A stretch of 64,000 nucleotides of DNA from Trueperaceae bacterium (GCA_965213705.1 OZ243913.1:4096001-4160000); one strand, 5' to 3'. Counted from the first letter of the stretch, positions 16,902-55,264 are shown. Notes: a model not told the origin generated them from the sequence alone. Numbers and translations: made by a program.

Positions 16902-16930
16902 AAAAAGGGCCACCTTAAGGTGGCCCTTTC
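16902..16930. terminator. Bidirectional intrinsic terminator
   Basis: AAAGGGCCACC-TTAA-GGTGGCCCTTT between convergent ssrA and the element operon. Confidence 0.85.
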
Positions 16931-25876: not shown

Positions 25877-25898
25877 TTGTAACCGGATGGTGTGACAA
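25877..25898 (+). promoter_or_regulatory. Palindromic operator (WYL-type candidate) upstream of the peptide gene
   Basis: TTGTAACCGGATGGTGTGACAA; 19/22 identical to 29182-29203. Confidence 0.65.
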
Positions 25899-26010
25899 AC
25901 GACCTTCAAACTGACTGAGACGTTAGCGACGTCACGCGTATAGGCCTAGCGACACCACAAACTGCTTTTCTCCCTAGGCGCCCGGAGATGGTAGGAGAAA
26001 AGAGGTTGGT

Positions 26011-26151
26011 ATGAGAAGGCTCGCTTTGTTAGCTCTGGTGCTCATCGGCACTGCAGTGACCACCGTTACTTCCGTTCTTACAGAAGGGCTGGGCGGTTCG
26101 AACCAAGTTTTGCTCGCCGACGGTGACGACTACGACACAGGTAGCGGTTAG
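26011..26151 (+). CDS. 46-aa secreted propeptide (candidate signalling-peptide precursor)
   Basis: MRRLALLALVLIGTAVTTVTSVLTEGLGGSNQVLLADGDDYDTGSG; basic N-terminus plus hydrophobic core; purine-rich RBS; below the ORF-track cutoff. Confidence 0.75.
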   Translation: MRRLALLALVLIGTAVTTVTSVLTEGLGGSNQVLLADGDDYDTGSG

Positions 26152-26163
26152 ACATATCGCATT

Positions 26164-29040
26164 CTAGGGGAGGTGGGGAAGCTCAGAAGTCCCCGCCTCC
26201 TCCAAAATGGATAAAATCAGGGTTGCAACCTGCTCCGACGGTAAATCGCACCAAACCGGTGTACCGTCGTAACTCGGCAAACCTTGAAAAACCTTTCTGT
26301 CCGCATAAACCATGTAGGGCGTTTTGGCCTTACAGTAGGCGTATAGGTCTGCGCTCAGCCCGCACAGGGAATTCTTGGTCCCGGCCTGCAGGACGCCCAC
26401 GAGATGGTGCAAGATGATGGGGTCGCTCTGCGTCCACCGAGCTTTTTTAAGCCCTGCACGGTAGTGTTCAAGAGCACGTTGAGGCTCGTCCTCCAGCAGG
26501 TGGACGGCTCCCAACGTCCCGTGCGCTCTCACCTCCTTGCCGATCGAGCGCTGGGCCCGAGCCTCGGTGAGAACCTCGTAACCGAGCTGTTCGGCACGCT
26601 CGCGGCGGCCCTCGAGGGCGAACAGGTGAGCGAGTTTCGCCCGGCTGAGGAGCGCCCAGTGCGCGAGGCCGAGCGCTTTTGCGCAGTCTGAGGCCTGCTC
26701 GAGCCTGAGGCGCGCCTCCAAGGTGTTACCGGTTTCCAGGGCCAACCAGCCGCCGACATAGTTGCACCAAATCTTTTTAGCCGCTATGCCTTGCTGGTCG
26801 AAGAGGTGTTCGGCCGCCGCGAGGCGCGACCGGGCTTCGGCGTAGTCGCCCCGATTGACGGCGTTGATGGCGAGGTTGGTAAGCGCGCTGGCCGCTTCGC
26901 CCGAATCCGGTTCGGCGTAAGTGAAGGCTGTTTCGAAGTAGCCGCGGGCTTCAGCGAAGCGGCCCAGCGAGTCGTAGGCCGCGCCGAGCGTGTTCAAGCA
27001 GGTCTCTCGCGCGCACCCACCACTCAGCGTCAGCGCTGCCTCGGCGGTATGAACGGCTTCAGCGTAACGGCTCGAGCGCAGCAAAAACCAGGCCCGACTT
27101 GCTTGCAAAGCCACAGCCATACCCTTATCTTGCAGAGCCGCGGCCGCTTCCTCGACAAGCTCGAGGCCCTGCTGCGGGCGTGAGTGCAGGTCGTACAGGC
27201 GTTGCAAGGTGGGCAGGGCAGGTTGCAGGACGTGCATCCACTCCTGCCGAACGGCCCAGCGCCAAGCTGCGGCGATGTTGGCCGAACTGGTTTGAAAATC
27301 GACTTTACCCTTCGAGCCTGGCGGCTTTTCCGAGGGTCGCTCGGGCTGCGCTGCGGCTTGCAAGGCCGTCAGATAAAAGGTCGCGTGCCGACTCCGCAAG
27401 GCTGCCTTAGCGGGATGACGTTCGTACAGGTAGCGCGCGAGCAGCGGATGCAAGCTGTAGCGGTCGCGCTCGAAACTCAGGAGCGAGGCGTCTAATAAGC
27501 GCCTCAAGTGCCGAGGTTTCGCCCCGAGAAGCTGTTCGGCAGCCGAGAGAGAAAAACCGCCCCGAAACACGCTCAGCTCGCGAAAGACGGTGGCCGTTTC
27601 CGCGTCGAGGAGAGTGACCGAAAGGTCGAAGGCGGCGTTCAAGTCTTCCCCGTCCGCAGCGCTCAGCGCGCCCAAGTCGGACCTCGAGCGCTCTACAAGC
27701 TCGGCGAGCGGCAGGCTCGCCGTCCAACCCGCGACGAGCTTGAGGGCGAGTGGGACACCGACTGTGTGCCGACACAGCTCGAGCAGCAGCGGTGCATCCT
27801 CGTCGCTGAAAACCGCCCCTTGCCGCGCCGCCGAACTCAGGAAGAGCTTGCCCGCCGCGCTCCGGCCGAGCTGGGCCAGCGTACTTCCCTGGGGCGGCAA
27901 ACTCAAACCGCTCAGGCGAAAAACCCGTTCGTCCTCGAGCCCGAGCCGTTCGCGTGAGGTCACGAGAATTCGCAACTCGGAACAGGCGCGCAAAAGTTGC
28001 CCGATGACGCCCCTCAGCTGGAGCAAGGCCTCGAAATTGTCGAGCACGAGGAGAATGCGCGGCGCGGCGAGGTGCCCGGTCACGGCTTCGGTCAGGTATT
28101 CGAGCTGCGGCTTCACACCGAGCGCGTCGGCCAAAGCTTGCCACAGCGCGCCAGCGGGCGCGTCTTGCGGGAGGTCGGCCAAAGGTACCAGTGCAATTTC
28201 GTCGAAAAGAGACTCGCTTTGCTGCACGAAGGCTTTGGCAAGCTCCGTTTTACCGATGCCGGCCAATCCCGTAACGGTCACCAGGCGTTCTCCGGCCAGA
28301 AAGTGCTCGTGCAGCTGCGTCAACTCGGCCTCGCGGCCGACGAACAGAGACGTCACGCCGACTTCTTGACGAGGCCGACCTCCCTTTACGCTCACCCTAC
28401 TCGCGAAGCCGCCGTGCCACTCGGCCGTTGCACGCTGCACAGCGTCGGCATCGGCGGGGAAACCCAGCTCGAGCAAAAGCCGGTGCATTCGCTCCACGTT
28501 GTAGAGGCTGGGCAGCGCCACACCGTGCGGCAACCGAAAAGCCCGCAGCACCAACGCGCGCGCTCCCGCCGCCTCGCCCTGCCGCCGGCGCTCTTCGGCA
28601 AGGGTCAGCAAAACGTCGGCAAAGCTGTTTTGCAGGGTTGCACGCTCAATACTCAGCCACTCGCTCACCTCTTCCCCGAGCCGTAGGCGCGTCTCCTCGA
28701 GCCCGTACAGAAACGGCCCCCGGTACAGCGCCACAGCGCGTTCGTACTCTTTTTGGGTAAGGGCGCGCCGAAACTCGGCCGCGTCCACGGGCACATGGCA
28801 GCCGAGTCGCCCGCGCCCCGACTCGAGCAGGTTCGGGTCCAGCTTTTTGAGCCGACGCAGCGCCTCTGAAAGGCTTTTGCTGCGCCTAGTCGCGTCTATT
28901 TGATGGGGCCAGAACAGGGCTTGCAGTTCTTTGCGCAAGCATGTGTCATGCAGCGCAACGTAAGTCAGCAACAAAAGAGGTTGGGGCTCGGCAAAGTCGC
29001 TGCCCTCGAGCCTCAAACCTCCTAACGTCACCAGCCGCAT
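26164..29040 (-). CDS. AfsR/SARP-type regulator: wHTH-BTAD, NB-ARC, TPR
   Basis: LFWP...LYRGPFL (BTAD); FVGREAEL, GLAGIGKT, LVLDNFE, TSRE, GVPLAL, LHPLL; TPR-like C-terminus; TATAAC-N6-ATG leaderless start. Confidence 0.92.
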   Translation of the reverse strand: MRLVTLGGLRLEGSDFAEPQPLLLLTYVALHDTCLRKELQALFWPHQIDATRRSKSLSEALRRLKKLDPNLLESGRGRLGCHVPVDAAEFRRALTQKEYERAVALYRGPFLYGLEETRLRLGEEVSEWLSIERATLQNSFADVLLTLAEERRRQGEAAGARALVLRAFRLPHGVALPSLYNVERMHRLLLELGFPADADAVQRATAEWHGGFASRVSVKGGRPRQEVGVTSLFVGREAELTQLHEHFLAGERLVTVTGLAGIGKTELAKAFVQQSESLFDEIALVPLADLPQDAPAGALWQALADALGVKPQLEYLTEAVTGHLAAPRILLVLDNFEALLQLRGVIGQLLRACSELRILVTSRERLGLEDERVFRLSGLSLPPQGSTLAQLGRSAAGKLFLSSAARQGAVFSDEDAPLLLELCRHTVGVPLALKLVAGWTASLPLAELVERSRSDLGALSAADGEDLNAAFDLSVTLLDAETATVFRELSVFRGGFSLSAAEQLLGAKPRHLRRLLDASLLSFERDRYSLHPLLARYLYERHPAKAALRSRHATFYLTALQAAAQPERPSEKPPGSKGKVDFQTSSANIAAAWRWAVRQEWMHVLQPALPTLQRLYDLHSRPQQGLELVEEAAAALQDKGMAVALQASRAWFLLRSSRYAEAVHTAEAALTLSGGCARETCLNTLGAAYDSLGRFAEARGYFETAFTYAEPDSGEAASALTNLAINAVNRGDYAEARSRLAAAEHLFDQQGIAAKKIWCNYVGGWLALETGNTLEARLRLEQASDCAKALGLAHWALLSRAKLAHLFALEGRRERAEQLGYEVLTEARAQRSIGKEVRAHGTLGAVHLLEDEPQRALEHYRAGLKKARWTQSDPIILHHLVGVLQAGTKNSLCGLSADLYAYCKAKTPYMVYADRKVFQGLPSYDGTPVWCDLPSEQVATLILSILEEAGTSELPHLP

Positions 29041-29077
29041 TCTGCGGTTATAGCACGTAGGCCGTAGACGTGGTGGC

Positions 29078-29101
29078 AGCCTCGTTGGAACGTCGTTGGA
29101 A
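29078..29101 (+). promoter_or_regulatory. 11-bp-period direct repeat TCGTTGGAA (SARP-type activator site)
   Basis: AGCCTCGTTGGAACGTCGTTGGAA; 22/24 identical to 39520-39543; 10 nt before TATGAC. Confidence 0.7.
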
Positions 29102-29180
29102 AACCGCGTGCTATGACCAGAAGCATGTTGAGCACGTTCGACGGCGGCGTTTCTCTCACCGCTTATAAGTTCTATCAGGG

Positions 29181-29204
29181 GTTGTCACCAGAGGGTGTGA
29201 CAAC
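29181..29204 (+). promoter_or_regulatory. Palindromic operator GTTGTCAC-N8-GTGACAAC (WYL-type candidate)
   Basis: Perfect 8-bp arms; TGTGAC-N10-TACCGT-N6-ATG(29224). Confidence 0.7.
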
Positions 29205-29223
29205 GCCTCTTTACCGTGAGGCC

Positions 29224-29982
29224 ATGAAGCCTTCTTTTTCTTACAGCCTCAGCCACACGCTCCGCTGCCCTCGCCGCTTTCACTCAGAGAAGTTGCAAAA
29301 GGAACCCGTCCTCGCTCCGTTCGCCTCGAGCACCCTCGGGCGCGAGGTTCACGTGCGCGTCGCCGCCAGCCTCCACAGGGGTACACCCGCCGACGAACGC
29401 TCTTTCCGCTTGCCGAAGCGCGTCTTGTTGCAAGCCGGAGAAAACCTCGACGACCTCGTCTGGCGCGCTCACTGCGCCCTCAGCTTTTACAACGCCAAGT
29501 GCCGCGCCTGGCTCGCCAGGAAAACCACGACCTGTGTTGAGCACTACGTCAGCCGCCCCTACCCACTTCAAAGCGAGACCGTGCAAGTGAGTGGTATTTT
29601 CGACCTCGTTCTTTCTAGCGCCAAAGGAGACGTGCTCATCGACTGGAAAACGGGCAGCGCGCAGCGCAGCGAAGACCAGCTCAAGTTTTACCTCATGCTG
29701 CGCTTTTTAGAAACCGGGCGGCGACCCCGGCACGCCGAGGCGGTGGCGTTAGGGACGGGCGAGCCTTTGTGCATCGTTTGGGACAGCGAGGTAGAACCTT
29801 GGTTCGAAGACAAGCTCGAGGCGATGCGCCGCGACCTGGCCGCTTGCCATACGCGCGCGGCCGTCCCAGGGTTTCACTGCACCTACTGCCCTTACGCGCA
29901 GCGCTGCGAGGCCAGCGAAGCGCCGAACAGATGGGTGCTCGACACTTTTACCGGGGAGGTGACGCACCTTGGGCAAGCGTGA
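29224..29982 (+). CDS. Cas4/RecB-like PD-(D/E)XK nuclease with Fe-S cysteines (alternative in-frame starts 29113/29125)
   Basis: CPRRF, G..VH, GIFDLV, IDWKTG, QLKFY, CTYCPYAQRC. Confidence 0.88.
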   Translation: MKPSFSYSLSHTLRCPRRFHSEKLQKEPVLAPFASSTLGREVHVRVAASLHRGTPADERSFRLPKRVLLQAGENLDDLVWRAHCALSFYNAKCRAWLARKTTTCVEHYVSRPYPLQSETVQVSGIFDLVLSSAKGDVLIDWKTGSAQRSEDQLKFYLMLRFLETGRRPRHAEAVALGTGEPLCIVWDSEVEPWFEDKLEAMRRDLAACHTRAAVPGFHCTYCPYAQRCEASEAPNRWVLDTFTGEVTHLGQA

Positions 29983-30937
29983 AAAAGGCGAGGCGACGCT
30001 GAGGCTCGTCGAATTCGTCGACTACCTCCGCGAACACCCGGAGCAACACAAGGTTGCGGCCTTAGCGGGGCACTTCGGGGTCGACCGTAATCAAATTTAC
30101 CGCTGGGCCAAGTACGCTTATGACCGTTACGGCATTCCCATCGACCTGCCGCCCTTGGTCGAACGCGGCTGCGTCAAACTCGGTGAGGGCGACCACGCGC
30201 TCAAACGAGTCACCTTGGACAGAATCGAAGTCGAGGCGCTGCTCGCAGCCGCCGTCCGCATCGAAGCCTTGACCCCCTATGCCAGACAAGCCCTCGACAA
30301 GCTCGAGGATGCCCGGCGCTTGCCCGAAGACACCCTGCAAGACCCCGTCCTCTACAGCCCGCTCATGGACGAATACGCCCCCGAACTCTTCGAGCGCGTC
30401 GTCAAAGCCGTCAGAGACTACCGAGTAGCACAGGTCAGCTACACCAACGCACGGGGCGAGCGAAAAACGTATCTCTTCAACAGCTACGCGCTCATCGCGG
30501 ACGGGCAGCACCTTTACCTGGTCGGTATCGCCCACAGCAGCCTAGAGGCCGGTTACGACACGGTCATCCCCTTACGCCTCGACCAGATAGAGCACTTCGT
30601 CCTTCAACAAGGTTCGTTCAAAAAACCGTCTTTCGACGCGAAAACCTACGCGCTCAGAGAGTTCGGCCCGTTCAAAGCCGAGGGAGAGGTGCTCAGCATC
30701 AAAGTTCGGTTTTCTGCTGAAAAAGCTCGCTACATCGAGCGCACCAGGCGGCACGAGAGCCAAAGGTGTGTAAAGCATGCGGACGGCACGCTTCTGTGGA
30801 GCATCAGCGCGCCGCTGAACGACGCGCTCGTTTACTGGATTACGAGCTACGGGCCGCACGCCACGGTGCTCGAGCCCGAGGAGCTGAGAGAACAGGTGCT
30901 CGAGTGGGCGCAGGGGAGTGTCAATGCCAATTCATAG
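29969..30937 (+). CDS. HTH-WYL-WCX transcriptional regulator
   Basis: N-terminal HTH; YTNARGE...LYLVG...LRLDQI; WITSYGPHATVLEPEELR. Confidence 0.9.
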   Translation: MGKREKGEATLRLVEFVDYLREHPEQHKVAALAGHFGVDRNQIYRWAKYAYDRYGIPIDLPPLVERGCVKLGEGDHALKRVTLDRIEVEALLAAAVRIEALTPYARQALDKLEDARRLPEDTLQDPVLYSPLMDEYAPELFERVVKAVRDYRVAQVSYTNARGERKTYLFNSYALIADGQHLYLVGIAHSSLEAGYDTVIPLRLDQIEHFVLQQGSFKKPSFDAKTYALREFGPFKAEGEVLSIKVRFSAEKARYIERTRRHESQRCVKHADGTLLWSISAPLNDALVYWITSYGPHATVLEPEELREQVLEWAQGSVNANS

Positions 30938-30954
30938 CCTAACGTCGATACCCG

Positions 30955-31221
30955 CTAAACAGCCGTTTTGGGACGAAGCTTATAAACCTCAGCAAGCTCA
31001 TGCTCGAGGTCTTCTGCGCTGTAATCGGGGTAGTAATAGCCGTGTGAGGTGTACCAGCGGATGGCCTCGAGCCGGTTCAAGCCCAACAGCGAACCTGCCT
31101 TGCCGACACTCATGCGCTCCTCGCGCACCATTTGCAGCAGCAGGCTTTCTAAGACTTTGCGCTCTAAGTCGTCTCCGTAGGCGGCGAGTATTTCGGGGGG
31201 AAGCTCGAGGGTTATGGGCAT
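30955..31221 (-). CDS. UPF0175-family protein (antitoxin-like)
   Basis: ITLELP...MSVGKAGSLLGLNR; TACAAT-N6-ATG leaderless start. Confidence 0.8.
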   Translation of the reverse strand: MPITLELPPEILAAYGDDLERKVLESLLLQMVREERMSVGKAGSLLGLNRLEAIRWYTSHGYYYPDYSAEDLEHELAEVYKLRPKTAV

Positions 31222-31282
31222 ACAGAGATTGTAGAGCAAAAAGAACTAAGGAGGCCAGTTTATAATGACCTCCTCTTCCACC

Positions 31283-31361
31283 ATTATCCTCTGCGAGGTT
31301 GGTTCACGTATCTCTTTCATTGTTTCAATCTTCTTACGAAGATGTTTTGATGATAGCAAAG
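31283..31361 (-). CRISPR. Degenerate CRISPR mini-array (CreR/CreA-like regulatory crRNA)
   Basis: Pseudo-repeat ending ATCTTC-GTAA-GAAGATTGAAAC; spacer AATGAAAGAGATACGTGAA; partial repeat AACCTCGCAGAGGAT. Confidence 0.8.
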
Positions 31362-31418
31362 TTGGTCTAGGTGTACGTAAACTTAGAGTTCAATTTCACG
31401 TTCTTCTCTCATTAACCC

Positions 31419-31447
31419 TTGACAAAGAAAATTCTTTCTCTTACACT
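31419..31447 (+). promoter_or_regulatory. Strong sigma70 promoter of the cas interference operon
   Basis: TTGACA-N17-TACACT. Confidence 0.85.
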
Positions 31448-31536
31448 CCCATAAACCAGCAGGCTGGCTTCGCGCCTACCAAGCTATCAAAGCCAGCTGC
31501 TGCAACGAAAGGCTTCACTGAAAGGAGTGAAGAACT

Positions 31537-31725
31537 TTGTCTATGGGATTATACAACCTTGATCTTGAAACAATTCTTCAGGAGTTTACAAGGGAAACCC
31601 TTGCTACTCTCGAGAAAGAACTTTCTCCCGAGCAATATGCATTTGTCGAGACGCGGCTACAACAGCTTGAGGCTGATAAAGTTTTCGAGCTTTATGAGCA
31701 GGAACTCTACGGAGTTGATTCGTAG
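31537..31725 (+). CDS. Small acidic protein, first gene of the cas operon
   Basis: AAGGAG RBS; stop directly precedes the cas3 RBS. Confidence 0.65.
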   Translation: MSMGLYNLDLETILQEFTRETLATLEKELSPEQYAFVETRLQQLEADKVFELYEQELYGVDS

Positions 31726-31737
31726 GAGGATAGTGAT

Positions 31738-33804
31738 ATGAGAGCCGCATTGAGCCTAACTCTACTCGAGGCCTGGTCAAAACGCTACACGGGAGGCCTG
31801 AATTTTGCCTTGCCAGAGGGTTGGCAACTCGCCACTCACCAAAAAGAGGTGTATGACACGCTGCACGAGCCTGATATAGATGTTGTGTTTGATACGGCGA
31901 TGACCGGGGACGGGAAGAGTTTAGCCGCTTATTTACCCATGCTTCGCCCGCAGGCTAAACGGCTGGGTAATGCTGTAGTCGCCTATCCAACCAATGAACT
32001 CATTCGCGACCAGGAAAGGCAGGTTAAAAACTACTTGGATGATTTCTCTGTTGACTTGAGCTTCCAAAAACTCAACGGAGAAACTATAGGAAGCGTGGCT
32101 AAGGAAAACGAAGTATCCCGCTACGAGTCAATTAAAGATTTGGTCTACAGGCAAAAGCTTCTGCTGACCAATCCCGATGTTTTTAATCTTATCGAAAGCT
32201 TTGCCTACACTAGCCCTATCAATCCGGCAACGCTTGCCCAAGAGTTTTCCAGCCTCTTTCGTTATGTGGTTTTTGACGAGTTTCACATTTTTGCGGCTCC
32301 GCAGATAGCCGCGATTATCGACGCCATGCTGTTCATTCGGGCAAACGGCAGTGCGAACTTTCCGACTAAGTTTCTATTTCTGTCGGCAACCCCGAGCCCC
32401 ATTCTCAGAGACGTCCTGGACAACGCTGATTTCAGGTTCCGAGTTATCGAGGGAAGCTACCAACACGGTCCCAAACCCAAAGGTGCTTACCGAAGCATTT
32501 TGCAAGAGGCAACCCTCGAGCTTGAACCCTGCGAGGCAAATACTGGTGGCATTTTGGGGTGGGCAACAAACAATCTCGAGAAAATCAAAGGGTTTTATCG
32601 TGAGAATCCGGGAAGTAAAGGGTTGATTATCTGTAACAGCGTATTTACGGCAAAAAAGCTGTATGCCTATTTGCGAGAGGGCTTGGTCGATACGGGAATC
32701 TCTTTAGGTGAAAATACAGGTTTGACGGGCAAGGAAGAAAAGCAAAGGTCATTAGAGCAAGACCTTGTTGTGGCGACATCAACAGTGGACGTTGGTGTCG
32801 ATTTCCGCATCAACTTTCTTATTTTTGAGTCTTTGAATGCCGGTTCTTTTATTCAACGTTTGGGTCGTTTGGGCAGACATAAAGATTTTCCTGTCTATCA
32901 CGCAGTAGCGCTATTGCCACAGTTTTTGGTTGAACGCTTTGCAAAGCATTATCAAGATGGGCAGACGGTTGACAGATGGTCTTTTTTTCAAAACTTGAGT
33001 GAGATTAAAGACGATAAAGCCGAGCAAATTTTTCCGCCGGAACAGGAGTTCAAGCCTTATATCAAACGTTGGGGCGGTGTCAAGGCAGTTCAGCGTCTAG
33101 GCAAGCTCTATAAGTATGGGGGTAAGGACAAATATCAGACACTTATACAGCGCTATCAACCGAATGCCGCTCAGGTTTTCAAGATTGCGAGCACAACCCA
33201 GGCTCGAGCAAGGCGACTTGAACCGGCTGTAAACAAAGAACTGTTCTCCTTCCGGGGTGCCGGACTGATGGACATCTGGACCTTTGACCCTTCTTCAAAA
33301 GCAGTAACTACGGTAAATGTTCTAAGGCTTTTGGCGGGGACAGAGTTTGGGTTGATCAGCAAACAAGAAGCGGAAGCTATCGCCATAATACACAGCACGC
33401 CTTTTTATCCAACTTACCTGAATCTCTACGCCAAAATCCACAGCTATAAGGAGGAGTACGACTTTGTTCAACTCCGCTATCAGCACACTTTTGGAGATGA
33501 TGGTCAAGCTTTCAATCACGCAGCAGACCGCGCCGGGTTTTTACTAGAAGCCGCTCATCCCGATATTCGCAAGGTGAGCCAAGCTCTCGTCAACAAACCT
33601 CTCTGCAGTTGCGTATGTGATAAAGAGCTGAGTGGTGAAAGCCCGCGAAACGCCCAAAGAATTTTGAGTTTGCCACCCCTGTTCAGTTTGGCCCAGGTCA
33701 TCGATAGCACCAACACTTCCTATACCGTTGCCTTTGGTCACGAAGCCCTTCTGCTGGACAGCCTTATTCACTGGCGAAAAATAAACGACTATTTCATTGC
33801 TTGA
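31738..33804 (+). CDS. cas3: Type I-D helicase Cas3' (no HD domain)
   Basis: TAMTGDGKS, YPTNEL, FDEFH, LSAT, STVDVGVD, QRLGRLGRH. Confidence 0.95.
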   Translation: MRAALSLTLLEAWSKRYTGGLNFALPEGWQLATHQKEVYDTLHEPDIDVVFDTAMTGDGKSLAAYLPMLRPQAKRLGNAVVAYPTNELIRDQERQVKNYLDDFSVDLSFQKLNGETIGSVAKENEVSRYESIKDLVYRQKLLLTNPDVFNLIESFAYTSPINPATLAQEFSSLFRYVVFDEFHIFAAPQIAAIIDAMLFIRANGSANFPTKFLFLSATPSPILRDVLDNADFRFRVIEGSYQHGPKPKGAYRSILQEATLELEPCEANTGGILGWATNNLEKIKGFYRENPGSKGLIICNSVFTAKKLYAYLREGLVDTGISLGENTGLTGKEEKQRSLEQDLVVATSTVDVGVDFRINFLIFESLNAGSFIQRLGRLGRHKDFPVYHAVALLPQFLVERFAKHYQDGQTVDRWSFFQNLSEIKDDKAEQIFPPEQEFKPYIKRWGGVKAVQRLGKLYKYGGKDKYQTLIQRYQPNAAQVFKIASTTQARARRLEPAVNKELFSFRGAGLMDIWTFDPSSKAVTTVNVLRLLAGTEFGLISKQEAEAIAIIHSTPFYPTYLNLYAKIHSYKEEYDFVQLRYQHTFGDDGQAFNHAADRAGFLLEAAHPDIRKVSQALVNKPLCSCVCDKELSGESPRNAQRILSLPPLFSLAQVIDSTNTSYTVAFGHEALLLDSLIHWRKINDYFIA

Positions 33805-33815
33805 AAGGAGTAGTA

Positions 33816-36800
33816 ATGGATGAAAACGAAGACATCTTAACCGAGTTCAACTTTGAAGACTGGGAAGAGCCTTTAGAACCAAAGGCTTATGAGCAGGTAC
33901 AAAGGCCCCCATTTGCAAAACTCATACTCGACACGGTTCAGGATGCGCCCTCAGCGCTTCAGGATTGGGCAGAACTGGTTGTACCTAAGCTTCTCAGTGT
34001 TCTGGCGCTGCGTAACGCGAAAGGCATGGGCGAGGTCGAAGCGAATCGGTTCTTGGGAAAAACGGATTTCAAGTCAGGTCAGGCTCGAGCCAAAGCGTTC
34101 AAAAAATTAACCGAAATGCCCGATCAAAGTCTCGCCGTTCACACCCTGAATGCGGCTTTGGGTGGCTGGACGGTCGTTGCGCTTGCGAACCTTGATGATT
34201 TCGAGCAACGCCTGTATTTAGCAGGGATAACCTTGCACGACCTCAACAAGATGTTGGGAACAACTCTGCGTTTGCAGGGTGAGCAGAAAGAGGCCTTTGA
34301 GGAAGCTTTCAAAGCCTGGGCTGAACGCCTTGGCCTTTGGCAATTTATAGGCGAAAACCACTGGGCCGATGTTGCTTACTTGGCTCAAAACGCAGAAGCC
34401 GTCAAGGGTGAGAACCGCACACTCTTCAACTACGACCAGTTGCAAACATCACCGGAAGACTTGGAGCCTATCAGCGATTTTGTTCGCTTGGCCGATCTCC
34501 TGGCAAGCGCAGCCAAACACCCTGACGACGTTTTAAACATGGGAGGCGGCAATAAAGTCATAGAAACGCTTCGGCGCGTTCTACGGGGGAAATATATACT
34601 TCGTTACCACAAAACCGCCGACAACCGTGGCTTACTCACCCAACTGATTCACAATGCTGTTTTAGAGCAAGCCCAAGAGAAGGGTTGGCTACCTTTCCTG
34701 TACTTTCCCGACGGCGTGACTTACTTAGTCCCTAAAGAAGCGGAGAACATCAATCTCGAAGACGTTCCCCAGCGAGTTAGGCAAATGCTTGTAGAGTCCG
34801 TAGCCGACAAGCTGGGTCAACTGGTGGCTCGAGCCCCCACCGGAATGCGTTACAAGCCCGAATTTATCGAACTTTTGACACCTGCTCGAGCTTGCAAGTT
34901 GGCAATCCAAAGGATTTTGGAGATTATCAGCGACAAAAAGCCTCCCGTGACCGACGAGCGAAAGGCGAAGACTGTACTCCGCAAAGATGCCACGGTCAAG
35001 CTCGATTTTGACTATGGCGCTTCTCTGAACGCCGACCGATTGGCGGAAGGCTTGTTCGGTGTGTCGAAAATAATCTTCGACTATTACGGGGATGATAGAG
35101 AGACACATGGGGGGTCCCTCATTTGCGCACTTGGGCTGGGGGATTTGGTAGAGACATTCAGGTCTATCGAATTTACAGGCGGCGTGGGTTATCCCTGGTA
35201 CTACATCGGGGGTCACTACATACACCGCAATCCCGGCTTAGATGCCAACGACGTTGAAAACGTGATGCAAAAAGCGGTAACTCAGGTTTTAGGCGACCTC
35301 GGTGAACCGAAAAAAGAGCCCCCTTTCGGCTTTTTGGAAAGTTACATCGGCCAAACACTCAGCACAGGCACCGAGCGTGAAGCATGGAACTTCTCGGGCG
35401 AGTTGGAGCGGTATGTCGTCAGTAAAAAACTACGCAGTGGACAGCGAGTTTGTGCAGTCTGCAACAGTAGCTTTGCTGTAAGAGCAGACTACTCGACATT
35501 TTCTAATAAGCAAGTTGCAGGCTACGCCGATGCGCGCCGCGGTATCTGTCAGATCTGTCAGGCCGAAAATCTACTGCGCCGCTTCACGCTCGGAAAAGAC
35601 ATGCTGTCAGATGACGGCACGAAGTTCTTGCATCTCTACCCAACTTACTTCTTTACACCTATCACAGCGAAGGTGATGCAACACGCCTATCAATCTTTCA
35701 AACAAGCCACTTTTGCCGAAATTGCCAAACCTTATCAGCAAGCCGATTACGAGGTCAGGGCGATTCTCCATGCTGACGTTTTCCAGGTTTTGAAAGCCGA
35801 TAACCCCAAAAGACGACTTGACAGAGTGGACTATCCCGAGGGACAGATGCACGGTTACTTCCTGCTCGGAGTTCCGTACTTGGGGCGCGACCCGAGCGAT
35901 ACCGAGACGTGGGTCATGCCTGCGCTGCTGGCGCTGCTTTCCCCTTTACTGTTCGGCACGAAAGCTGTGGTCAGCGATTCGGCTTTACCGCTGTTTACGA
36001 GCGGTGCGGACTTTCCCGAGACGGTCGTTCTCGACGCGCCCCACAGCTTTTGGCAGCACGGCATAAAGAAAACGAGGTTTCGTCTGGATGAACTCGAGAA
36101 AGGTTTGCATACAGTATTGGCACTTTACGGTTTGGTCAGCGAAGCCTACAAAGACGGCAAGGGTTATGCCATTTGGAATCAGCTCGGCTCGGTGGCTCGA
36201 AACCTCGACTCCGAACCTCTAAGCATCTTCGGCTACGCGGACCGTATCAGCTCACAGCTCAGCAAGGGAAAAAGCACCCTCACAAGCACCGACGGCATGT
36301 CTCCTTGGTTGGCTCAACGTTTAACAACCTACTACGAATCAACGCTGGACTTCTACGAAACTTACTCTTTAGGAGGTACATCAAGAATGGGATTGATTCA
36401 GGAAACCGTCGATAAATATGCGAAGTTTTACAGGGCGCGAGGCTCGAGTTCGGCTTATGCAAGATTGCGTCCCTTGGACGACGCTATCAAAGTTATTCTG
36501 GCTGCACCGACAGAAGAGCAACTCGACCAAGAAAGCTTGCACCTTGAAATTATGGGGGCGCTGATGGCATATCTAGGCAGAATTAGAGATAGAGATCCAT
36601 CGATTAAAGGCATCATTCCTAAAGGTATGTGGAGTGATGATGTCCTACTCCCTGCGGTGAGCGACTTTGCAACCCACATGTTGGACAAGGTGTTTTGTGA
36701 CTTCGCCGGAGGTGACAGGGCAATTTTGAGGAAGCAACTCAACAAGTTCAAAAATGGTTGTGAAGCTTACTACGTTCTTCATTACGGAAGAAAAAAGACG

Positions 36801-36845
36801 GATGAAAGCGCCTCTACAGAAAATCACGAAAAGGAGAGTAGCTGA
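33816..36845 (+). CDS. cas10d: Type I-D large subunit Cas10d (Csc3) with N-terminal HD nuclease
   Basis: DQSLAVHTLN, LHDLNK, LADLLAS, CAVC...CQIC, HLYPTYFFT; AAGGAG RBS. Confidence 0.95.
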   Translation: MDENEDILTEFNFEDWEEPLEPKAYEQVQRPPFAKLILDTVQDAPSALQDWAELVVPKLLSVLALRNAKGMGEVEANRFLGKTDFKSGQARAKAFKKLTEMPDQSLAVHTLNAALGGWTVVALANLDDFEQRLYLAGITLHDLNKMLGTTLRLQGEQKEAFEEAFKAWAERLGLWQFIGENHWADVAYLAQNAEAVKGENRTLFNYDQLQTSPEDLEPISDFVRLADLLASAAKHPDDVLNMGGGNKVIETLRRVLRGKYILRYHKTADNRGLLTQLIHNAVLEQAQEKGWLPFLYFPDGVTYLVPKEAENINLEDVPQRVRQMLVESVADKLGQLVARAPTGMRYKPEFIELLTPARACKLAIQRILEIISDKKPPVTDERKAKTVLRKDATVKLDFDYGASLNADRLAEGLFGVSKIIFDYYGDDRETHGGSLICALGLGDLVETFRSIEFTGGVGYPWYYIGGHYIHRNPGLDANDVENVMQKAVTQVLGDLGEPKKEPPFGFLESYIGQTLSTGTEREAWNFSGELERYVVSKKLRSGQRVCAVCNSSFAVRADYSTFSNKQVAGYADARRGICQICQAENLLRRFTLGKDMLSDDGTKFLHLYPTYFFTPITAKVMQHAYQSFKQATFAEIAKPYQQADYEVRAILHADVFQVLKADNPKRRLDRVDYPEGQMHGYFLLGVPYLGRDPSDTETWVMPALLALLSPLLFGTKAVVSDSALPLFTSGADFPETVVLDAPHSFWQHGIKKTRFRLDELEKGLHTVLALYGLVSEAYKDGKGYAIWNQLGSVARNLDSEPLSIFGYADRISSQLSKGKSTLTSTDGMSPWLAQRLTTYYESTLDFYETYSLGGTSRMGLIQETVDKYAKFYRARGSSSAYARLRPLDDAIKVILAAPTEEQLDQESLHLEIMGALMAYLGRIRDRDPSIKGIIPKGMWSDDVLLPAVSDFATHMLDKVFCDFAGGDRAILRKQLNKFKNGCEAYYVLHYGRKKTDESASTENHEKESS
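36387..36845 (+). CDS. cas11d: Cas11d small subunit from an internal start in cas10d
   Basis: In-frame ATG (MGLIQETVDKYAKFY) preceded by AGGAGG at 36371-36376. Confidence 0.8.
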   Translation: MGLIQETVDKYAKFYRARGSSSAYARLRPLDDAIKVILAAPTEEQLDQESLHLEIMGALMAYLGRIRDRDPSIKGIIPKGMWSDDVLLPAVSDFATHMLDKVFCDFAGGDRAILRKQLNKFKNGCEAYYVLHYGRKKTDESASTENHEKESS

Positions 36846-37771
36846 TGTTCGACGCATATGAAAAATACTTCCATACGGCAATCCCTCTGCGCCCCGGTGC
36901 AAAGTACGCCCACATCCTAGTTCTCCGCAAAACGGAAAGTTACGCAGTTTTCAAAACAGATGGCGAACTCAACACTGCTAGGGTTAGCTCGGGTCTCGAG
37001 GATAAAACACAAATCTCACGCTTGACGATTTTCAAACGCAAACAGACCACCCCCGAGCGCTTGACAGGCCGAGAGATTTTGCGCCGTTACGAACTCTTAC
37101 CCGCTGACGACCAGTACAACGTGAACTTCACACCCGACTCGCCCGACTCGGTCATTTACGGCTACGCTATTGGTGATTCGGGGTCTGAAAAGTCGAAGGT
37201 CTATGTAGACACAGCCTTTTCTCTCACCAACTACGACGTTTCCCACGAAACGATGACGCTGAACGCGCCTTACGAGGACGGCACCATGACGCGGGGCAGC
37301 AGCACCACAAACCGTTTTAGCGAACAAGACCATGTTCTGCCGGAAGTTTATTTTCCGAGCGTCGTCACCGTTCGAGACCCTACCCAAAATACGCTTGCTT
37401 ACGTCATCAACAACATCAGACGTACCAAACGTTACGGCGCACAAACAACGCGAACCGGACAAGTGTCCAACCAAATCGTCGGCCTTATCTTTGCCGACGG
37501 GGAGATTTTCAGCAATTTACGGCTTGTCCAAGCGATGCACGACCTTTTGGAAAGCGACAAAACCCTCAGCCAAGACGCTGCGATGGTACAGGTCGCCCGC
37601 GACCTCGTAGCACGCGACGGCGTCATTTACGAACTGGTCACGGGTGAACAGCTCGAGGTGTTGCTCACCGAACTCGATGCTGTTTTTACGGATGAAACGC
37701 AGTTGAAAACCTTTTTGACCGACCTCTACAGCGAAACGAAAGCCTACGCTGAATCCGTGAAAAACCAGTAG
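36845..37771 (+). CDS. cas7: Type I-D Cas7d (Csc2)
   Basis: FKRKQTTPER.TGRE, YGYAIG, RYGAQTTRTG. Confidence 0.95.
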   Translation: MFDAYEKYFHTAIPLRPGAKYAHILVLRKTESYAVFKTDGELNTARVSSGLEDKTQISRLTIFKRKQTTPERLTGREILRRYELLPADDQYNVNFTPDSPDSVIYGYAIGDSGSEKSKVYVDTAFSLTNYDVSHETMTLNAPYEDGTMTRGSSTTNRFSEQDHVLPEVYFPSVVTVRDPTQNTLAYVINNIRRTKRYGAQTTRTGQVSNQIVGLIFADGEIFSNLRLVQAMHDLLESDKTLSQDAAMVQVARDLVARDGVIYELVTGEQLEVLLTELDAVFTDETQLKTFLTDLYSETKAYAESVKNQ

Positions 37772-37776
37772 CAGTT

Positions 37777-38433
37777 ATGCATGCTTACCACCTAGAGATT
37801 GACTTACATGACCTCATGTACTACGCTTCTCGCGAACTGGGGCGCATGTACATCAGTGAGCGCTATATCCACAATTACGCGCTGACCTACGCCTTGGGTT
37901 TAGCTAAGAGTGGCTATCACGACGCGGTTCAGGTGCCTCACTACCGAGAAGACTTGGAACCTCTGAATGACGCTGGAGTTTATGTCACTCCTGCCAAACC
38001 CATCCGTGTGGAAACGTCTACGCATACGTTCAAGCTCGCAGACACTCGGTACCAGGTCAAAATGGAGCAGTCGAGCGTCAACATTCCCACCTTTGGACGC
38101 ATTCGCGAGATAAACCCCGAATCGCGTTATGAAGCCTTCGTTCTTACGAAGGAGAAGCTCGAGCTTCCCAAGTGGATTCGGCTTGGTAAGTGGATGAGCA
38201 AAGCCTCGGTAGCAACTGCAGAAGTCGAAGTGAGTGAGGGAAAGAAAACGTTTAGCACTTTGCACCCTCTCAATGGTCTCGACTTACCTTTCGACGCGAA
38301 GCTTTACGACCTTATCAACATGCCTCCGGTCTCTCTTATCGAAAATGCAAGGTTTGAGGGCGAGTGCTACACCCTGAAGCTGAGCGAGAAAGAGACTCGC
38401 GAGTTTCCAAAAGGACTAAGGTACACCTTCTAA
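37777..38433 (+). CDS. cas5: Type I-D Cas5d (Csc1)
   Basis: ASRELGR, IHNYALTYALG, PKWIRLGKWMSKA, MPPVSL. Confidence 0.95.
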   Translation: MHAYHLEIDLHDLMYYASRELGRMYISERYIHNYALTYALGLAKSGYHDAVQVPHYREDLEPLNDAGVYVTPAKPIRVETSTHTFKLADTRYQVKMEQSSVNIPTFGRIREINPESRYEAFVLTKEKLELPKWIRLGKWMSKASVATAEVEVSEGKKTFSTLHPLNGLDLPFDAKLYDLINMPPVSLIENARFEGECYTLKLSEKETREFPKGLRYTF

Positions 38434-39233
38434 TGCCCCATGCTTTCCTCCTCCACCTCACCCCCACCACCCGCGCCCCCGACCACCCCTACCTCCACCA
38501 GTACACCCACGGCCTCTTCTATCACCTGTTGGAAACCATTCATCCCGCGCTGAGCGCCGACATTCATGCCAGCAAGCGCAACCCCTTCACGCTTTGGGCC
38601 AGGGAAAAGGACGGCGGCATCTTGCTGCGCGTGACCGTCCTGAACGATACCCTCTTTCAATCGCTGCTCGAGGTGGTGTTGCAAGAATCCTTGACGGGCC
38701 TGGAGCTGGGCCAGGACAGCTACCGGGTGGCGAGGGTATTAGCGACGCCGGAAGGCCACCGGGACGCGGGCTTCTTAGGCTGGGAAGATGTTTTATGTGC
38801 CCGGCCCGTGAACAGGCTCGAGCTGCGCTTCGTCACGCCGACGGTGTTTGCGACCTCGAAAGGGAAAAAGCGGCACTACACGCCGCTACCCCTGCCGAGG
38901 CTGGTGCTGAAAAGTTTGCTGAACGCCTTTCAAGCCTACAGCCCCGCGCCCTACAGCGAGCCGGAAGCGGCGGGGTTGGAGGCTATGTTCGACGAACTGT
39001 TCGTCGTCACAAGTCACGATATTGCCACAAAGCCCCACAAAGCGGGCAAGGTCAGGCTGACCGGCTTCGTGGGGCGGGCGAGCATTCGCTATCAAGAGGC
39101 GTCGGGGCGGGTCGAGAAAGCGCTCGGGCAGCTTGCCAGCCTCGTCTTTTTCAGCGGGGTGGGGGCGAAGACGCCTTACGGGATGGGGCAGGTGCGTGTA
39201 AAGGTTGGAAGCGGGCAAGTTGGTAGCAAGTAA
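38433..39233 (+). CDS. cas6: CRISPR endoribonuclease Cas6
   Basis: F.TPT.F, GFVG, C-terminal G-loop FSGVGAKTPYGMG. Confidence 0.95.
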   Translation: MPHAFLLHLTPTTRAPDHPYLHQYTHGLFYHLLETIHPALSADIHASKRNPFTLWAREKDGGILLRVTVLNDTLFQSLLEVVLQESLTGLELGQDSYRVARVLATPEGHRDAGFLGWEDVLCARPVNRLELRFVTPTVFATSKGKKRHYTPLPLPRLVLKSLLNAFQAYSPAPYSEPEAAGLEAMFDELFVVTSHDIATKPHKAGKVRLTGFVGRASIRYQEASGRVEKALGQLASLVFFSGVGAKTPYGMGQVRVKVGSGQVGSK

Positions 39234-39266
39234 CGTAGGCACTGGAAAAAGCCCTATGATGAAGCT

Positions 39267-39464
39267 GTGAACGAGTTCGAGCTTTTGAACAGAATAACCC
39301 TCGACCCCGACATCTGTCACGGCAAACCTTGTATCAGAGGGTTGCGCTATCCCGTCGAGACGATTCTGGAACTTTTAGGGAGCGGCATGTCCTTCGGGGA
39401 TCTTTTGGACGACTACGAAGACCTCGAGCGCGAGGACTTGCAGGCAGCTCTAATCTGGCAATAA
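39267..39464 (+). CDS. DUF433-family protein (antitoxin-like; partner absent)
   Basis: RITLDPDICHGKPCIRGLR...ILELL..G. Confidence 0.85.
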   Translation: MNEFELLNRITLDPDICHGKPCIRGLRYPVETILELLGSGMSFGDLLDDYEDLEREDLQAALIWQ

Positions 39465-39519
39465 CCGTCACTGCGCCGCTCGCTGGCAGCCGCTTCTATC
39501 CCTGTAAACCTCATCCGTA

Positions 39520-39543
39520 AGCCTCGTTGGAAGCTCGTTGGAA
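39520..39543 (+). promoter_or_regulatory. 11-bp-period direct repeat TCGTTGGAA upstream of cas4
   Basis: AGCCTCGTTGGAAGCTCGTTGGAA; 10 nt before TACGCT. Confidence 0.7.
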
Positions 39544-39600
39544 CGCCGTCGTTTACGCTTGTCTCGAGCCCGAGACGCCTATCCGATGTACGGAGGTTCT

Positions 39601-40161
39601 ATGGAATATTTGCCCATCAGCAAAATCAACACGGTCGTTTTTTGCCCGCGCCGCTACTACATCGAGCAGCTTTTGGCGGACACCGTGACGAACTATCACA
39701 TGACCGAGGGCACGGCGCTGCACGAGCGCACGGTGCGGACAGGCGAAGGCGTGTGGGTGTGGAGCAACTGCCTGGGCGTCAGCGGGATTATCGATCAGGT
39801 CGTACACGAGGACGGCGAGTGGGTCATCACCGAGTTCAAAAAGGGCTACCTCGGTGAGCACGAGAGCGACCGGGTGCAACTCTGCGCGCTCGCAGTTTGC
39901 TATGAGGAGGTTCACGGCGTGCATCTGAGTCACGGCTACATCTACTACCACCGCACCCGCAGGCGCAGCTTGGTCGAATACACACCCGAGCTGCGGCAGC
40001 GGGTCGAGGCGGCGGTCGCCCTGATGCGTAGGCTCGAGCAGCAAAGCCACTACCCGCCGGTCATCGACAACCCCAACAAATGCCAAGGGTGCAGCGTGCG
40101 CGAACCCTGCCAGCCGACGCTGACGCGCAGGCAGTTACCCCGCTGGAAGGGAGCAGTGTGA
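39601..40161 (+). CDS. cas4: CRISPR-associated Cas4
   Basis: FCPRR, G..LH, GIID, EFKKG, QLCA, CQGCSVREPC; GGAGG RBS. Confidence 0.95.
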   Translation: MEYLPISKINTVVFCPRRYYIEQLLADTVTNYHMTEGTALHERTVRTGEGVWVWSNCLGVSGIIDQVVHEDGEWVITEFKKGYLGEHESDRVQLCALAVCYEEVHGVHLSHGYIYYHRTRRRSLVEYTPELRQRVEAAVALMRRLEQQSHYPPVIDNPNKCQGCSVREPCQPTLTRRQLPRWKGAV

Positions 40162-41135
40162 TGGGTACGCTCTACGTTTTAGAACCTGACGTCTACCTGT
40201 CCAAAGACGGCGGCGTGCTGAAAGTTTCGCGCAGCAAGGGGCGGGAGGTGCTTCTCGAGCGCCCCCTGGCCCACGTGTCCGACGTGGTGATTTTGGGCCG
40301 GGCGACGGTCACTTCGTCGGCCCTTCAAGCCTGCGCCGAGCAGGGCACGGCGATTCACTACCTCACCCGCGGCGGCAAGTACGTGGCGCAGGTCGCCCCC
40401 GTCGAAAACAAAAACGTGCTGGTGCGCATCAAGCAGTACGAAGCGTACCTAAACCCCGAGTGGAAACACAGCTTGGCGCGGCGTTTTGTCGAGGGCAAGC
40501 TCGCCAACGCTATCGTCTTCGCGCGGCGGGGAGGCGCGGAGGTGGGCAGTTTGATGGCGCTCGTCAAACCTATCGCAAGGTGCGACAATACGGAAGCCTT
40601 GCGGGGGCTCGAGGGCAACGCCGCCCGGCTCTACTTCGGCCTCTTGAAAGACAAGTTCCCGGCAGCGTTCGCGCCCGAGTCGCGCAGTAAACGCCCGCCA
40701 CGCGACCGCGCCAACAGCTTGCTGTCGCTCGCCTACACCTTTTTAGCCAAAGAATGCCAGACGGCGGTCCGGGTGGCCGGGCTCGACCCGTATGTGGGCT
40801 ACCTGCACGAAGCCAAGTACGGCAAACCCGCCCTCGCCCTGGACCTGATGGAAGAGTTCCGCTCTATCATCGCCGACTCGGTGACGCTGACGCTCTTCAA
40901 CCGCGGCATGATTACCGAAGACATGTTCGAAGACGAGCGCGGCTATCCGACCCTGGCCGACGAAGGCTTCAAGCAGTTTTTACGAGCCTGGGAAGACCGC
41001 CTCAACCAACAGGTACACCACCCGTACCTCAAACAAAAGCTCGACTACCGGCAGGTGCTGGTGGCGCAGGCGCGCATTTTGGGCAAGCACCTCATGGGCG
41101 AACTGCCGGAGTATCTCCCCTTTACCGTGCGCTGA
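40161..41135 (+). CDS. cas1: CRISPR integrase Cas1
   Basis: RGLEGNAARLYF, NSLLSLAY, GLDPYVGYLH, LALDLMEEFR. Confidence 0.97.
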   Translation: MGTLYVLEPDVYLSKDGGVLKVSRSKGREVLLERPLAHVSDVVILGRATVTSSALQACAEQGTAIHYLTRGGKYVAQVAPVENKNVLVRIKQYEAYLNPEWKHSLARRFVEGKLANAIVFARRGGAEVGSLMALVKPIARCDNTEALRGLEGNAARLYFGLLKDKFPAAFAPESRSKRPPRDRANSLLSLAYTFLAKECQTAVRVAGLDPYVGYLHEAKYGKPALALDLMEEFRSIIADSVTLTLFNRGMITEDMFEDERGYPTLADEGFKQFLRAWEDRLNQQVHHPYLKQKLDYRQVLVAQARILGKHLMGELPEYLPFTVR

Positions 41136-41413
41136 TGTTTTACCTCGTCATCGCCTACGACACGCCCAGCGACAAGCGGCGCATCAAAATGGTGAAGCTC
41201 CTGAAGCGCTTCGGCGAGCGGCGGCAGTACAGCCTGTTCGAAGCGAGGGTCAGCCGCGACCAGTTGGCGACGTTGCAAACCTCGCTGGCTAAAATCGCCG
41301 ACGAAACCGAAGACACACTGGCGATTTACTTCTTGACACCGGAAAGTTTGCAGCGAACTTTCCGCATCGGCCACAGTGAGATAAAATCTTTAAGGGAGCC
41401 TGACTTTGTTTAG
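41135..41413 (+). CDS. cas2: CRISPR-associated Cas2
   Basis: VIAYD, RRQYSLFE. Confidence 0.95.
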   Translation: MFYLVIAYDTPSDKRRIKMVKLLKRFGERRQYSLFEARVSRDQLATLQTSLAKIADETEDTLAIYFLTPESLQRTFRIGHSEIKSLREPDFV

Positions 41414-46180: not shown

Positions 46181-46400
46181 CCTTTTGTCCTCTCGTGAGG
46201 TGCCGCCGAACGCGCCGGAGTTCATCCAACAGTTGCACCGCGAGGTACAGCAGCGCCACACCCCCAAAGAAGAGCAGGCCGAGGGACACGCCGCCGGGGT
46301 TGCCGGTGCTTAAAAACGCGAGCCCGGCGACAAAATACGCTGTTCCAAGGGCAATAGAGAGAGAGCGGACGAGTCGCGTCTTGAGTTTGCTACGGTTCAC
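46170..46400 (-). CDS. Small two-TM membrane protein
   Basis: Two hydrophobic segments; overlaps neighbours. Confidence 0.6.
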   Translation of the reverse strand: MNRSKLKTRLVRSLSIALGTAYFVAGLAFLSTGNPGGVSLGLLFFGGVALLYLAVQLLDELRRVRRHLTRGQKDDY

Positions 46401-51143: not shown

Positions 51144-51144
51144 C

Positions 51145-55255: not shown

Positions 55256-55264
55256 TCAATAAAC

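Follow-up and report, generated by a model that had tools for sequence, protein, structure and literature searches.

The 64,000-nucleotide stretch of a Trueperaceae bacterium genome analysed here (GCA_965213705.1 OZ243913.1:4096001-4160000; below, the window, with positions counted from its first letter) carries a type I-D CRISPR locus, and next to its interference genes lie the genes for a 46-amino-acid (aa) propeptide, for a 958-aa AfsR-type regulator and, in one operon, for a nuclease and a WYL protein. Two sequence motifs, box A and box B, tie these genes to each other and to the adaptation operon cas4-cas1-cas2. The module is real and conserved, and probably a new kind of CRISPR control, in which a WYL protein encoded in the locus would induce the peptide, the peptide would act on the regulator, and the regulator on the genes for spacer acquisition. 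To this relay in its full length we assign an even chance, and its parts are graded one by one below. Support for all steps is computational, and consists of sequence comparison and a model of the complex between peptide and regulator.

Two boxes and the proteins predicted to read them

Box A lies at 25877-25898 and 29182-29203, and box B at 29082-29101 and 39524-39543. A search of the whole genome of 4,246,949 base pairs (bp) finds either pattern twice and no more, also when three mismatches are allowed. With weight matrices built from the sites of relatives only, the four window sites score from 33.6 to 37.6 bits, while the best site elsewhere in the genome scores 18.6 bits for box A and 17.3 bits for box B. 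An earlier, sequence-only reading of this stretch had placed one motif before the propeptide gene and the nuclease-WYL operon and the other before the same operon and cas4-cas1-cas2, and the whole-genome search confirms both placements; the objection that it had raised against itself, i.e., motifs that are common genome-wide and bound by host factors, does not agree with two copies per pattern.

When 128 genomes of the family are searched, the exact box A pattern is found in nine, eight of which are module genomes. Near the single box A of G083 no module gene was found. The TCGTTGGAA repeat of box B, with at most one mismatch, is present in four of the 128, in two copies each, and these are the genomes whose regulators are 48-51% identical. 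With two mismatches, box B has nine matches in eight other genomes, about as many as the reversed pattern gives as a control, and no module gene lay near any of them. Genes of AfsR type are present in 112 of the 128 genomes, and the 48-51% identical ortholog in only three others than that of the window (G004, G073 and G023), where peptide, regulator and WYL genes are arranged alike and boxes A and B stand at the same four places. The interference genes of G073 belong to a different type I set, and from this it follows that the module goes with the adaptation genes and not with subtype I-D. Scans with the regulator alignment gave no confirmed locus among metagenome contigs, and nothing beyond the three loci already known among genome contigs.

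Box A1 is an imperfect palindrome, TTGTAAC-N8-GTGACAA, followed by an 8-nucleotide (nt) spacer and the -10-like hexamer CAAACT (25907-25912), and is predicted to be a WYL-controlled promoter of the peptide gene. Box A2, with the same spacer length and the -10 hexamer TACCGT (29212-29217), is predicted to be a leaderless promoter through which the nuclease-WYL operon is autoregulated. The likely start of the nuclease gene is the ATG at 29224, because it comes six bases after TACCGT and agrees with the start in relatives, and with this start box A2 falls in the nuclease promoter. The start of the longest open reading frame (ORF), at 29113, would engulf box A2 and was rejected; the identities of the two genes of this operon hold. 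The nuclease itself, a Cas4/AddB-like PD-(D/E)XK protein with four Cys, is absent from the G023, G359 and G343 loci and is therefore dispensable; it may supply single-stranded DNA (ssDNA) to the WYL protein or prespacers to Cas1.

In G004, G023 and G073 the leader of a second, divergent CRISPR array lies just 5' of box A1 (L021 7700-7990, L024 16500-16800 and L029 4600-4900, respectively), so that the WYL protein might drive array transcription there too; the window has no array at this position.

The WYL protein of the window has the architecture HTH-WYL-WCX, and the best PDB match of its profile is DriD (9PFQ, E 3.5e-12; the codes of DriD are confirmed in PMC13004042). The equivalents of DriD Tyr168 and Arg207 are invariant, Y192 is Tyr or His, and R204 is not kept. 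DriD is described as an ssDNA-activated protein whose pseudo-palindromic site covers the -35 position and keeps a constant distance to the -10. The downstream half-site of box A has the spacing of the PafBC site (hexamer-N10-TA), which is given as tGTCgg(N10)tA(N3)T in PMC8635444. Since box A keeps a fixed spacing to the -10 and has no -35, the WYL protein would act by activation and not by repression. That it binds box A is very probable, and that it senses ssDNA and then activates is likely by its resemblance to DriD.

A simpler use of box A emerges when relatives are compared, a refinement that was beyond the reach of the sequence-only reading. WYL proteins 44-48% identical to the present one occur in another family of the order, where the WYL gene is divergent from cas4-cas1-cas2 and box A stands directly before cas4, with TA at the same distance, in all seven WYL loci examined (two with a more distant WYL). 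The regulator was not found within the 14-20 kilobases (kb) fetched around these loci, nor the peptide gene in 68 genomes of that family. Similarly, the peptide-less Trueperaceae genome G032 has box A, 8 nt, TAAACT, 6 nt and ATG in front of cas4. Box A is found at cas4 in eight of ten peptide-less loci with WYL, and at cas4 box B stands in place of box A exactly where the peptide pair occurs. Not added to this count is Thermus thermophilus HB8, whose plasmid pTT27 carries box A both in front of cas4 and in front of the interference genes of type I-B (L148 3649-3693 and 4945-4963), adjoining the WYL gene TTH_RS11130. The box A result thus predicts a WYL operator before both cas4-cas1-cas2 and the interference genes of HB8, and makes this operator a candidate for the CRP-independent induction of cas genes reported after phage infection (PMC3497052).

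Box B1 consists of TCGTTGGAA twice, with a period of 11 bp, a 10-nt spacer and the hexamer TATGAC. This geometry, a direct repeat of 11 bp over the -35 region, agrees with that of the AfsR box, for which PMC10936776 gives two 11-bp repeats at -40 to -19. Box B2, with a 10-nt spacer and the -10 hexamer TACGCT, is predicted to be a regulator-activated promoter of the adaptation operon, while box B1 is a predicted regulator site that would serve either a weak upstream promoter of nuclease-WYL or the control of the divergent regulator gene. The latter gene is probably leaderless, with TATAAC (29047-29052) 6 nt before its ATG.

The relevant cas4 clade is carried by 11 of the 128 family genomes. All eight of them that have the regulator also have box B before cas4, followed there without exception after 10 nt by TAnnnT, and TA is found 10 nt downstream in all 16 tabulated box-B sites and likewise at the cas4 site of G123. 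In a sister clade, formed by the regulators of G121, G122 and G029 (about 30% identical), TCWCTGGAA repeats stand instead, again both beside the regulator and before cas4, and G123 has its own third variant at both positions. The sister clade and the first four form one branch of six rows (Shimodaira-Hasegawa-like approximate likelihood ratio test 98) in a quick tree of 27 rows, which leaves out three rows whose ORFs were wrong or incomplete. In G121 and G122, cas4-cas1 is on a separate contig, behind an unrelated gene, and the match between box B and regulator is therefore not simple synteny. G122 has, moreover, a third box-B variant with TA at +10 on L066 (1-240), where it stands at a contig end between a cas6-like gene, on its 5' side, and an AT-rich stretch that resembles a leader.

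The regulator has a SARP-like N-terminus, a STAND NTPase and a C-terminal TPR sensor found by domain and profile matches. Its STAND part matches NB-ARC, NACHT and AAA_22, with conserved Walker A (GLAGIGKT) and Walker B (LLVLDNFE) motifs; the family profile matches AfsR with E 2.6e-45, and in the Atlas, residues 1-215 have BTAD/Trans_reg_C clusters as neighbours (0.93-0.94). The gene identities of the sequence-only reading, which had put an AfsR-type regulator between the peptide gene and the nuclease-WYL operon, hold. That its SARP-like domains bind box B we regard, from the co-variation of sites and regulators, as highly probable.

The occupancy of the boxes by these two proteins is predicted, and one may therefore consider that a host regulator such as CRP reads them, or that the roles of the two local proteins are swapped. 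This is very improbable, considering that the boxes are confined to this locus, with two copies of either in a genome, that box A persists where the regulator is missing, that from one regulator clade to the next box B differs and box A stays as it is, and that a palindrome fits a WYL dimer and an 11-bp direct repeat a SARP protein.

The peptide and its modelled fit to the regulator

The propeptide has a basic and hydrophobic N-terminus and a conserved acidic C-terminus, LADGDDYDTGSG, with the conserved tail DYDTGxG. Every homolog begins with basic residues, continues with a hydrophobic stretch and closes with an acidic tail that ends in glycine, and is signal-peptide-like as judged by inspection. 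In the leader of the gene, conserved CTCC and GGAG segments on either side of GGCGCC or GGTACC may pair and mask the ribosome-binding site; the evidence for this 5-pair consensus stem is weak, and no two-sided covariation was found in it.

When 30 regulator loci are screened, one per genome and some with short flanks, a convergent peptide gene is found at seven. Six of these are of the box-B clade, and they are all the members of that clade for which the flank in question is assembled. In G075 and G013 the peptide lies beside an AfsR-type regulator with neither CRISPR nor WYL nor box A nearby, which means that peptide and regulator are a unit of their own; the tails are EGGSGSGGG in G075 (L089 9442-15915) and DGEEYGDGG in G013 (L129 1167-3684). 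These pairs point to a wider family of peptide/AfsR signalling, and metagenomes contain three further candidate pairs, in each of which the contigs of peptide and regulator are equal in length. For the five other AfsR- or MalT-like genes of the present genome, no short ORF with a signal peptide was found within 600 nt.

To see how the two proteins could meet, consider the model of regulator residues 560-958 with peptide residues 17-46. It puts the peptide tail in the TPR groove with a score of 0.88, while the best control scores 0.02; the mark that it reaches is also reached in 116 of 157 solved complexes and in 2 of 215 mismatched pairs. The runs agree in at least 75% of contacts, with a predicted local distance difference test value of at least 54 for the partner, and the top contacts join peptide D40-Y41-D42 with regulator N683, A687, N722, W758 and Y761. 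Among three orthologs, 31 of 56 interface positions are invariant, compared with 96 of 335 other TPR positions. Identity is 0.66 at the interface and 0.38 elsewhere in six orthologs (one frameshifted row excluded), while among 83 other relatives the order is reversed, 0.13 against 0.20. The TPR profile also matches NprR (E 3.7e-17). On this modelling and conservation, it is quite probable that the peptide tail binds the TPR sensor.

The regulator could also bind box B and respond to something else, such as a phage protein on its STAND-TPR part or phosphorylation, with the small gene encoding a membrane or periplasmic protein and not a ligand. Bacterial STAND-TPR proteins can sense phage proteins (PMC12803255), kinases modulate AfsR, and the processing and import of the peptide are deduced. 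Such a trigger is nevertheless improbable when the peptide adjoins the regulator as often as counted above, when it does so also beside AfsR-type genes without CRISPR, and when its conserved part is the very part that is modelled in the groove, on clade-specific residues.

If the peptide is the ligand, its anatomy suggests that it is exported, trimmed and re-imported. In RRNPP systems an oligopeptide permease takes the peptide back in, and the genome encodes 13 solute-binding proteins of family 5 that are candidates for this step.

The proposed relay, its sign and its reach

Taken together, the parts would work as follows. On box A, the WYL protein, sensing ssDNA that arises from infection or damage, would turn on the peptide gene and its own operon. 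The propeptide would leave the cell, be trimmed to its acidic C-terminal tail and be taken back in, where the tail would settle on the TPR sensor of the AfsR/NLR-type regulator and lift its autoinhibition. The SARP domains would then act on box B and turn on cas4-cas1-cas2, perhaps with feedback onto nuclease-WYL, and the interference genes would stay apart, under autorepression by a mini-array. Of the circuit proposed in the sequence-only reading, in which invasion or damage sensed by the WYL protein changes peptide output and a TPR regulator switches the adaptation genes, possibly also in neighbouring cells, the wiring is supported by comparison (box A with WYL, box B with regulator, their covariation, the adjacency of the peptide and its model in the groove), while binding, direction of control and action on neighbours are what we infer.

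Inhibitory peptides are common among TPR receptors, with Phr and AimP as examples, and the sign of the peptide step must be weighed with this in mind. With identical wiring, the regulator could be active without ligand and be shut off by the peptide, which would limit self-spacers during repair or end a pulse of acquisition. Site assignments and complex model fit this case equally well. Furthermore, Sll7009, the one WYL protein of a CRISPR I-D system that has been studied, is described as a repressor in PMC10212523 (also PMC9122601), a point that speaks for negative control and against activation by the present WYL protein. On the other side, the NOD and TPR parts of AfsR are stated to repress the protein until an effector, called unknown, acts (bioRxiv 10.64898/2026.09.02.748808), and box A before cas4 in the directly wired relatives has the same promoter position as box A before the peptide, so that an inhibitory peptide would reverse the output. 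An activating peptide is favoured by parsimony, because the logic of the direct wiring, by which ssDNA raises cas4-cas1-cas2, is preserved only with such a peptide. We thus find an inhibitory peptide unlikely, and it is rather likely, by analogy with AfsR, that the peptide lifts the autoinhibition of the regulator.

The peptide step has apparently been inserted into the direct link between WYL and adaptation genes that is seen in relatives. By taking the place of that link, it would delay the response, set a threshold for it or extend it to other cells. An export-and-return loop fits a signal to neighbours best, although it could also be a cell-autonomous timer. In the former case the peptide would be an alarm pheromone, which a cell that senses ssDNA exports and which trips the NLR-like factor of its neighbours, so that their acquisition genes are primed before infection; this we put forward tentatively, as possible and on the doubtful side. 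Spacer acquisition is risky if always on, and if it begins only after a lytic phage has entered it is too late; a signal from infected cells would address this problem of timing. Were the alarm real, AfsR-type STAND regulators would have their first peptide ligand, and peptide signalling a class of receptors outside RRNPP, in a phylum with two membranes. The peptide/regulator pair is, more generally, a candidate class of ligands for AfsR-type NLR-like regulators, the native effectors of which are described as unknown, and priming of CRISPR memory at the population level would become directly testable with a synthetic peptide of ten residues.

Several observations weigh against the relay or some of its arms. 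The module genomes are all related, eight genomes from five genera of one family, and the counts above are therefore not independent. Pfam BTAD gives no match in the window regulator, and a weak one (E 0.036) in a clade-2 relative. The TPR part is like solved peptide-binding TPRs (NprR, LGN, kinesin light chain), so that mere likeness may have let the complex model pass, and the alignment from which conservation was counted, whose rows are kin, was also input to the model. On the nuclease-WYL side, box B is followed by a hexamer that has TA in eight of eight cases and the last T in none of eight, which makes the feedback arm doubtful; this site may be a weak promoter, or it may control the gene of the regulator itself. 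The last T of the hexamer is likewise present in none of the seven box A loci of the other family. In G008 and G135, both of which have WYL and cas4, neither box precedes cas4; in G135 this gene comes directly after cas6. G029 has box A, at a contig end, and no WYL ortholog was found in its assembly of 280 contigs. Finally, Deinococcota have an outer membrane, which could trap the peptide in the periplasm.

The locus, its setting and known systems

The features of the locus are collected in Table 1. Its type I-D gene set is complete, with cas3', cas10d, csc2, csc1, cas6, cas4, cas1, cas2 and an array.

Table 1. Positions of the module and of the CRISPR locus in the window
Feature	Position	Strand	Basis
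Box A1 with promoter	25877..25912	+	kept before the peptide gene in 7/7 aligned genomes
Peptide 5' leader	25960..26010	+	sequence conservation; consensus stem (weak)
Propeptide gene, 46 aa	26011..26151	+	homologs and complex model
AfsR-type regulator gene, 958 aa	26164..29040	-	domain and profile matches
Box B1 with hexamer TATGAC	29082..29117	+	pattern match and relatives' sites
Box A2 with -10 TACCGT	29182..29217	+	pattern and weight-matrix match
PD-(D/E)XK nuclease gene, 252 aa	29224..29982	+	domain match; start aligned with relatives
HTH-WYL-WCX regulator gene, 322 aa, DriD-like	29969..30937	+	domain and profile matches
UPF0175 small protein, inserted antitoxin-like gene	30955..31221	-	family match
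Degenerate mini-array (coordinates approximate; spacer about 31300-31321)	31286..31357	-	sequence match to target
Mini-array target (31396-31413) and adjoining cas3' promoter	31396..31447		14/18 match; minus-strand 5'-GTT PAM
Type I-D interference operon cas3'-cas10d-csc2(cas7d)-csc1(cas5d)-cas6	31738..39233	+	family matches
Box B2 with -10 TACGCT	39524..39559	+	pattern and relatives' sites
Adaptation operon: cas4 39601-40161, cas1 40161-41135, cas2 41135-41413	39601..41413	+	family matches
CRISPR array, 34 repeats of 36 nt, 33 spacers	41636..44016	+	repeat finding

The interference genes are, by sequence match, separately controlled through autorepression by a mini-array of the known crlRNA type, as the sequence-only reading had also held. 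The cas3' promoter consists of TTGACA (31419-31424), 17 bp and TACACT (31442-31447), and the mini-array target abuts its -35. Spacer and target agree in 14 of 18 bases, with positions 1-5 and 7-9 paired, next to a GTT protospacer-adjacent motif (PAM), and the two vary together in G000, G023 and G122. The type I-D PAM is given as GTN (PMC10212523), and mini-array autorepression by crlRNA is reported in type I-D (10.1101/2023.03.03.530964). After the promoter, at 31451-31725, come two conserved hairpin-like stretches and an acidic ORF of 60 aa (31543-31725) that is conserved in G023 and G122 and gave no match to a Pfam or NCBIfam family; it could encode a small Cas-linked protein or a cargo under mini-array control.

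Genes of a conjugative element (VirB4, VirD4, VirB6-like, integrase-like) and a transfer-messenger RNA (tmRNA) gene surround the CRISPR locus, which is likely carried by an integrative conjugative element. The tmRNA is followed by DUF932, AAA/VWA and type IV secretion genes (VirB4, VirD4, VirB6-like, SLT, DsbA) at 16539-16930 and 44036-58458, and a probable integrase lies at genome position 4170466-4171581, about 10 kb past the window. A search for a duplicate of the tmRNA end as attachment site found none, and the boundaries of the element are therefore unproven. This setting makes it conceivable that the module controls transfer of the element in the manner of Rap-Phr; there is, however, no box A or B at any conjugation gene, and element genes were not found beside the module in the fetched regions of G004, G023 and G073, so that we consider control of transfer most improbable.

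The array spacers gave zero matches to a phage collection, and no full-length match elsewhere in their own genome was found; spacers 1 and 7 (41672-41706 and 42096-42130) have a common 3' part of about 20 nt and different 5' ends. The antitoxin-like genes UPF0175 (30955-31221) and DUF433 (39267-39464) have partner genes in relatives that are missing in the window. At 13057-16023 lies another large TPR/ATPase regulator, whose activator-like domain is C-terminal (MalT-like order); it is unrelated to the module and has no adjoining propeptide. A type I-E-like cas locus at genome position 2187000-2199617 (near 2.19 Mb) encodes a 1233-aa WYL-containing fusion protein and has neither box A nor box B.

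The sequence-only reading had not recognised the wiring as one described before, and a full-text literature search likewise gave no CRISPR-encoded peptide, no peptide ligand of an AfsR-type protein and no such WYL operator, as judged from listings and with supplements and subscription journals largely outside. Among systems that resemble single parts, the mini-array is an ordinary member of the CreR/crlRNA type, with a degenerate mini-array and a spacer that matches a PAM-flanked site at a cas promoter; no difference was found. With RRNPP systems (Rap-Phr, NprR-NprX, AimR-AimP) the module shares a short, putative propeptide encoded next to a TPR receptor and, as modelled here, a C-terminal peptide in the TPR groove. 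RRNPP receptors consist of TPRs with an optional N-terminal HTH and have no NTPase, while the present receptor is a 958-aa STAND ATPase with a predicted SARP output, encoded convergently with its peptide in a Deinococcota host, with the box of a predicted damage sensor at the peptide promoter. The assignment to the RRNPP type in the sequence-only reading is therefore replaced by that to AfsR/NLR-type STAND proteins.

Like AfsR of Streptomyces coelicolor, the regulator has NOD and TPR parts in this order behind a SARP-like N-terminus, and an 11-bp direct-repeat box over the -35; unlike AfsR, which has its own targets afsS and wblH and a native effector called unknown, it has a linked peptide as candidate ligand and cas4-cas1-cas2 as target. 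DriD and PafBC, WYL activators that ssDNA turns on, share with the WYL protein the order HTH-WYL-WCX and a palindromic site at fixed distance from a -10 without -35. They differ in the sequence of the box, and here two local promoters, one of them for a signal peptide, take the place of DNA-repair genes. Sll7009 of Synechocystis is also a WYL regulator within a type I-D locus, but it is described as a repressor, with neither a peptide nor a second regulator. In acyl-homoserine lactone (AHL) quorum sensing (Serratia SmaR) and with Csa3a of Sulfolobus, adaptation genes are likewise raised by an intercellular signal or a locus-encoded activator, respectively. AHL, however, signals density host-wide, and what Csa3a reads is cyclic oligoadenylate inside the cell (PMC11535992); in neither case does a CRISPR locus encode an exported peptide that acts below a DNA sensor. 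The parts of the module belong to known families; the proposed combination, in which damage would trigger a peptide that an NLR-like protein receives, is outside the RRNPP, AfsR and WYL systems as described.

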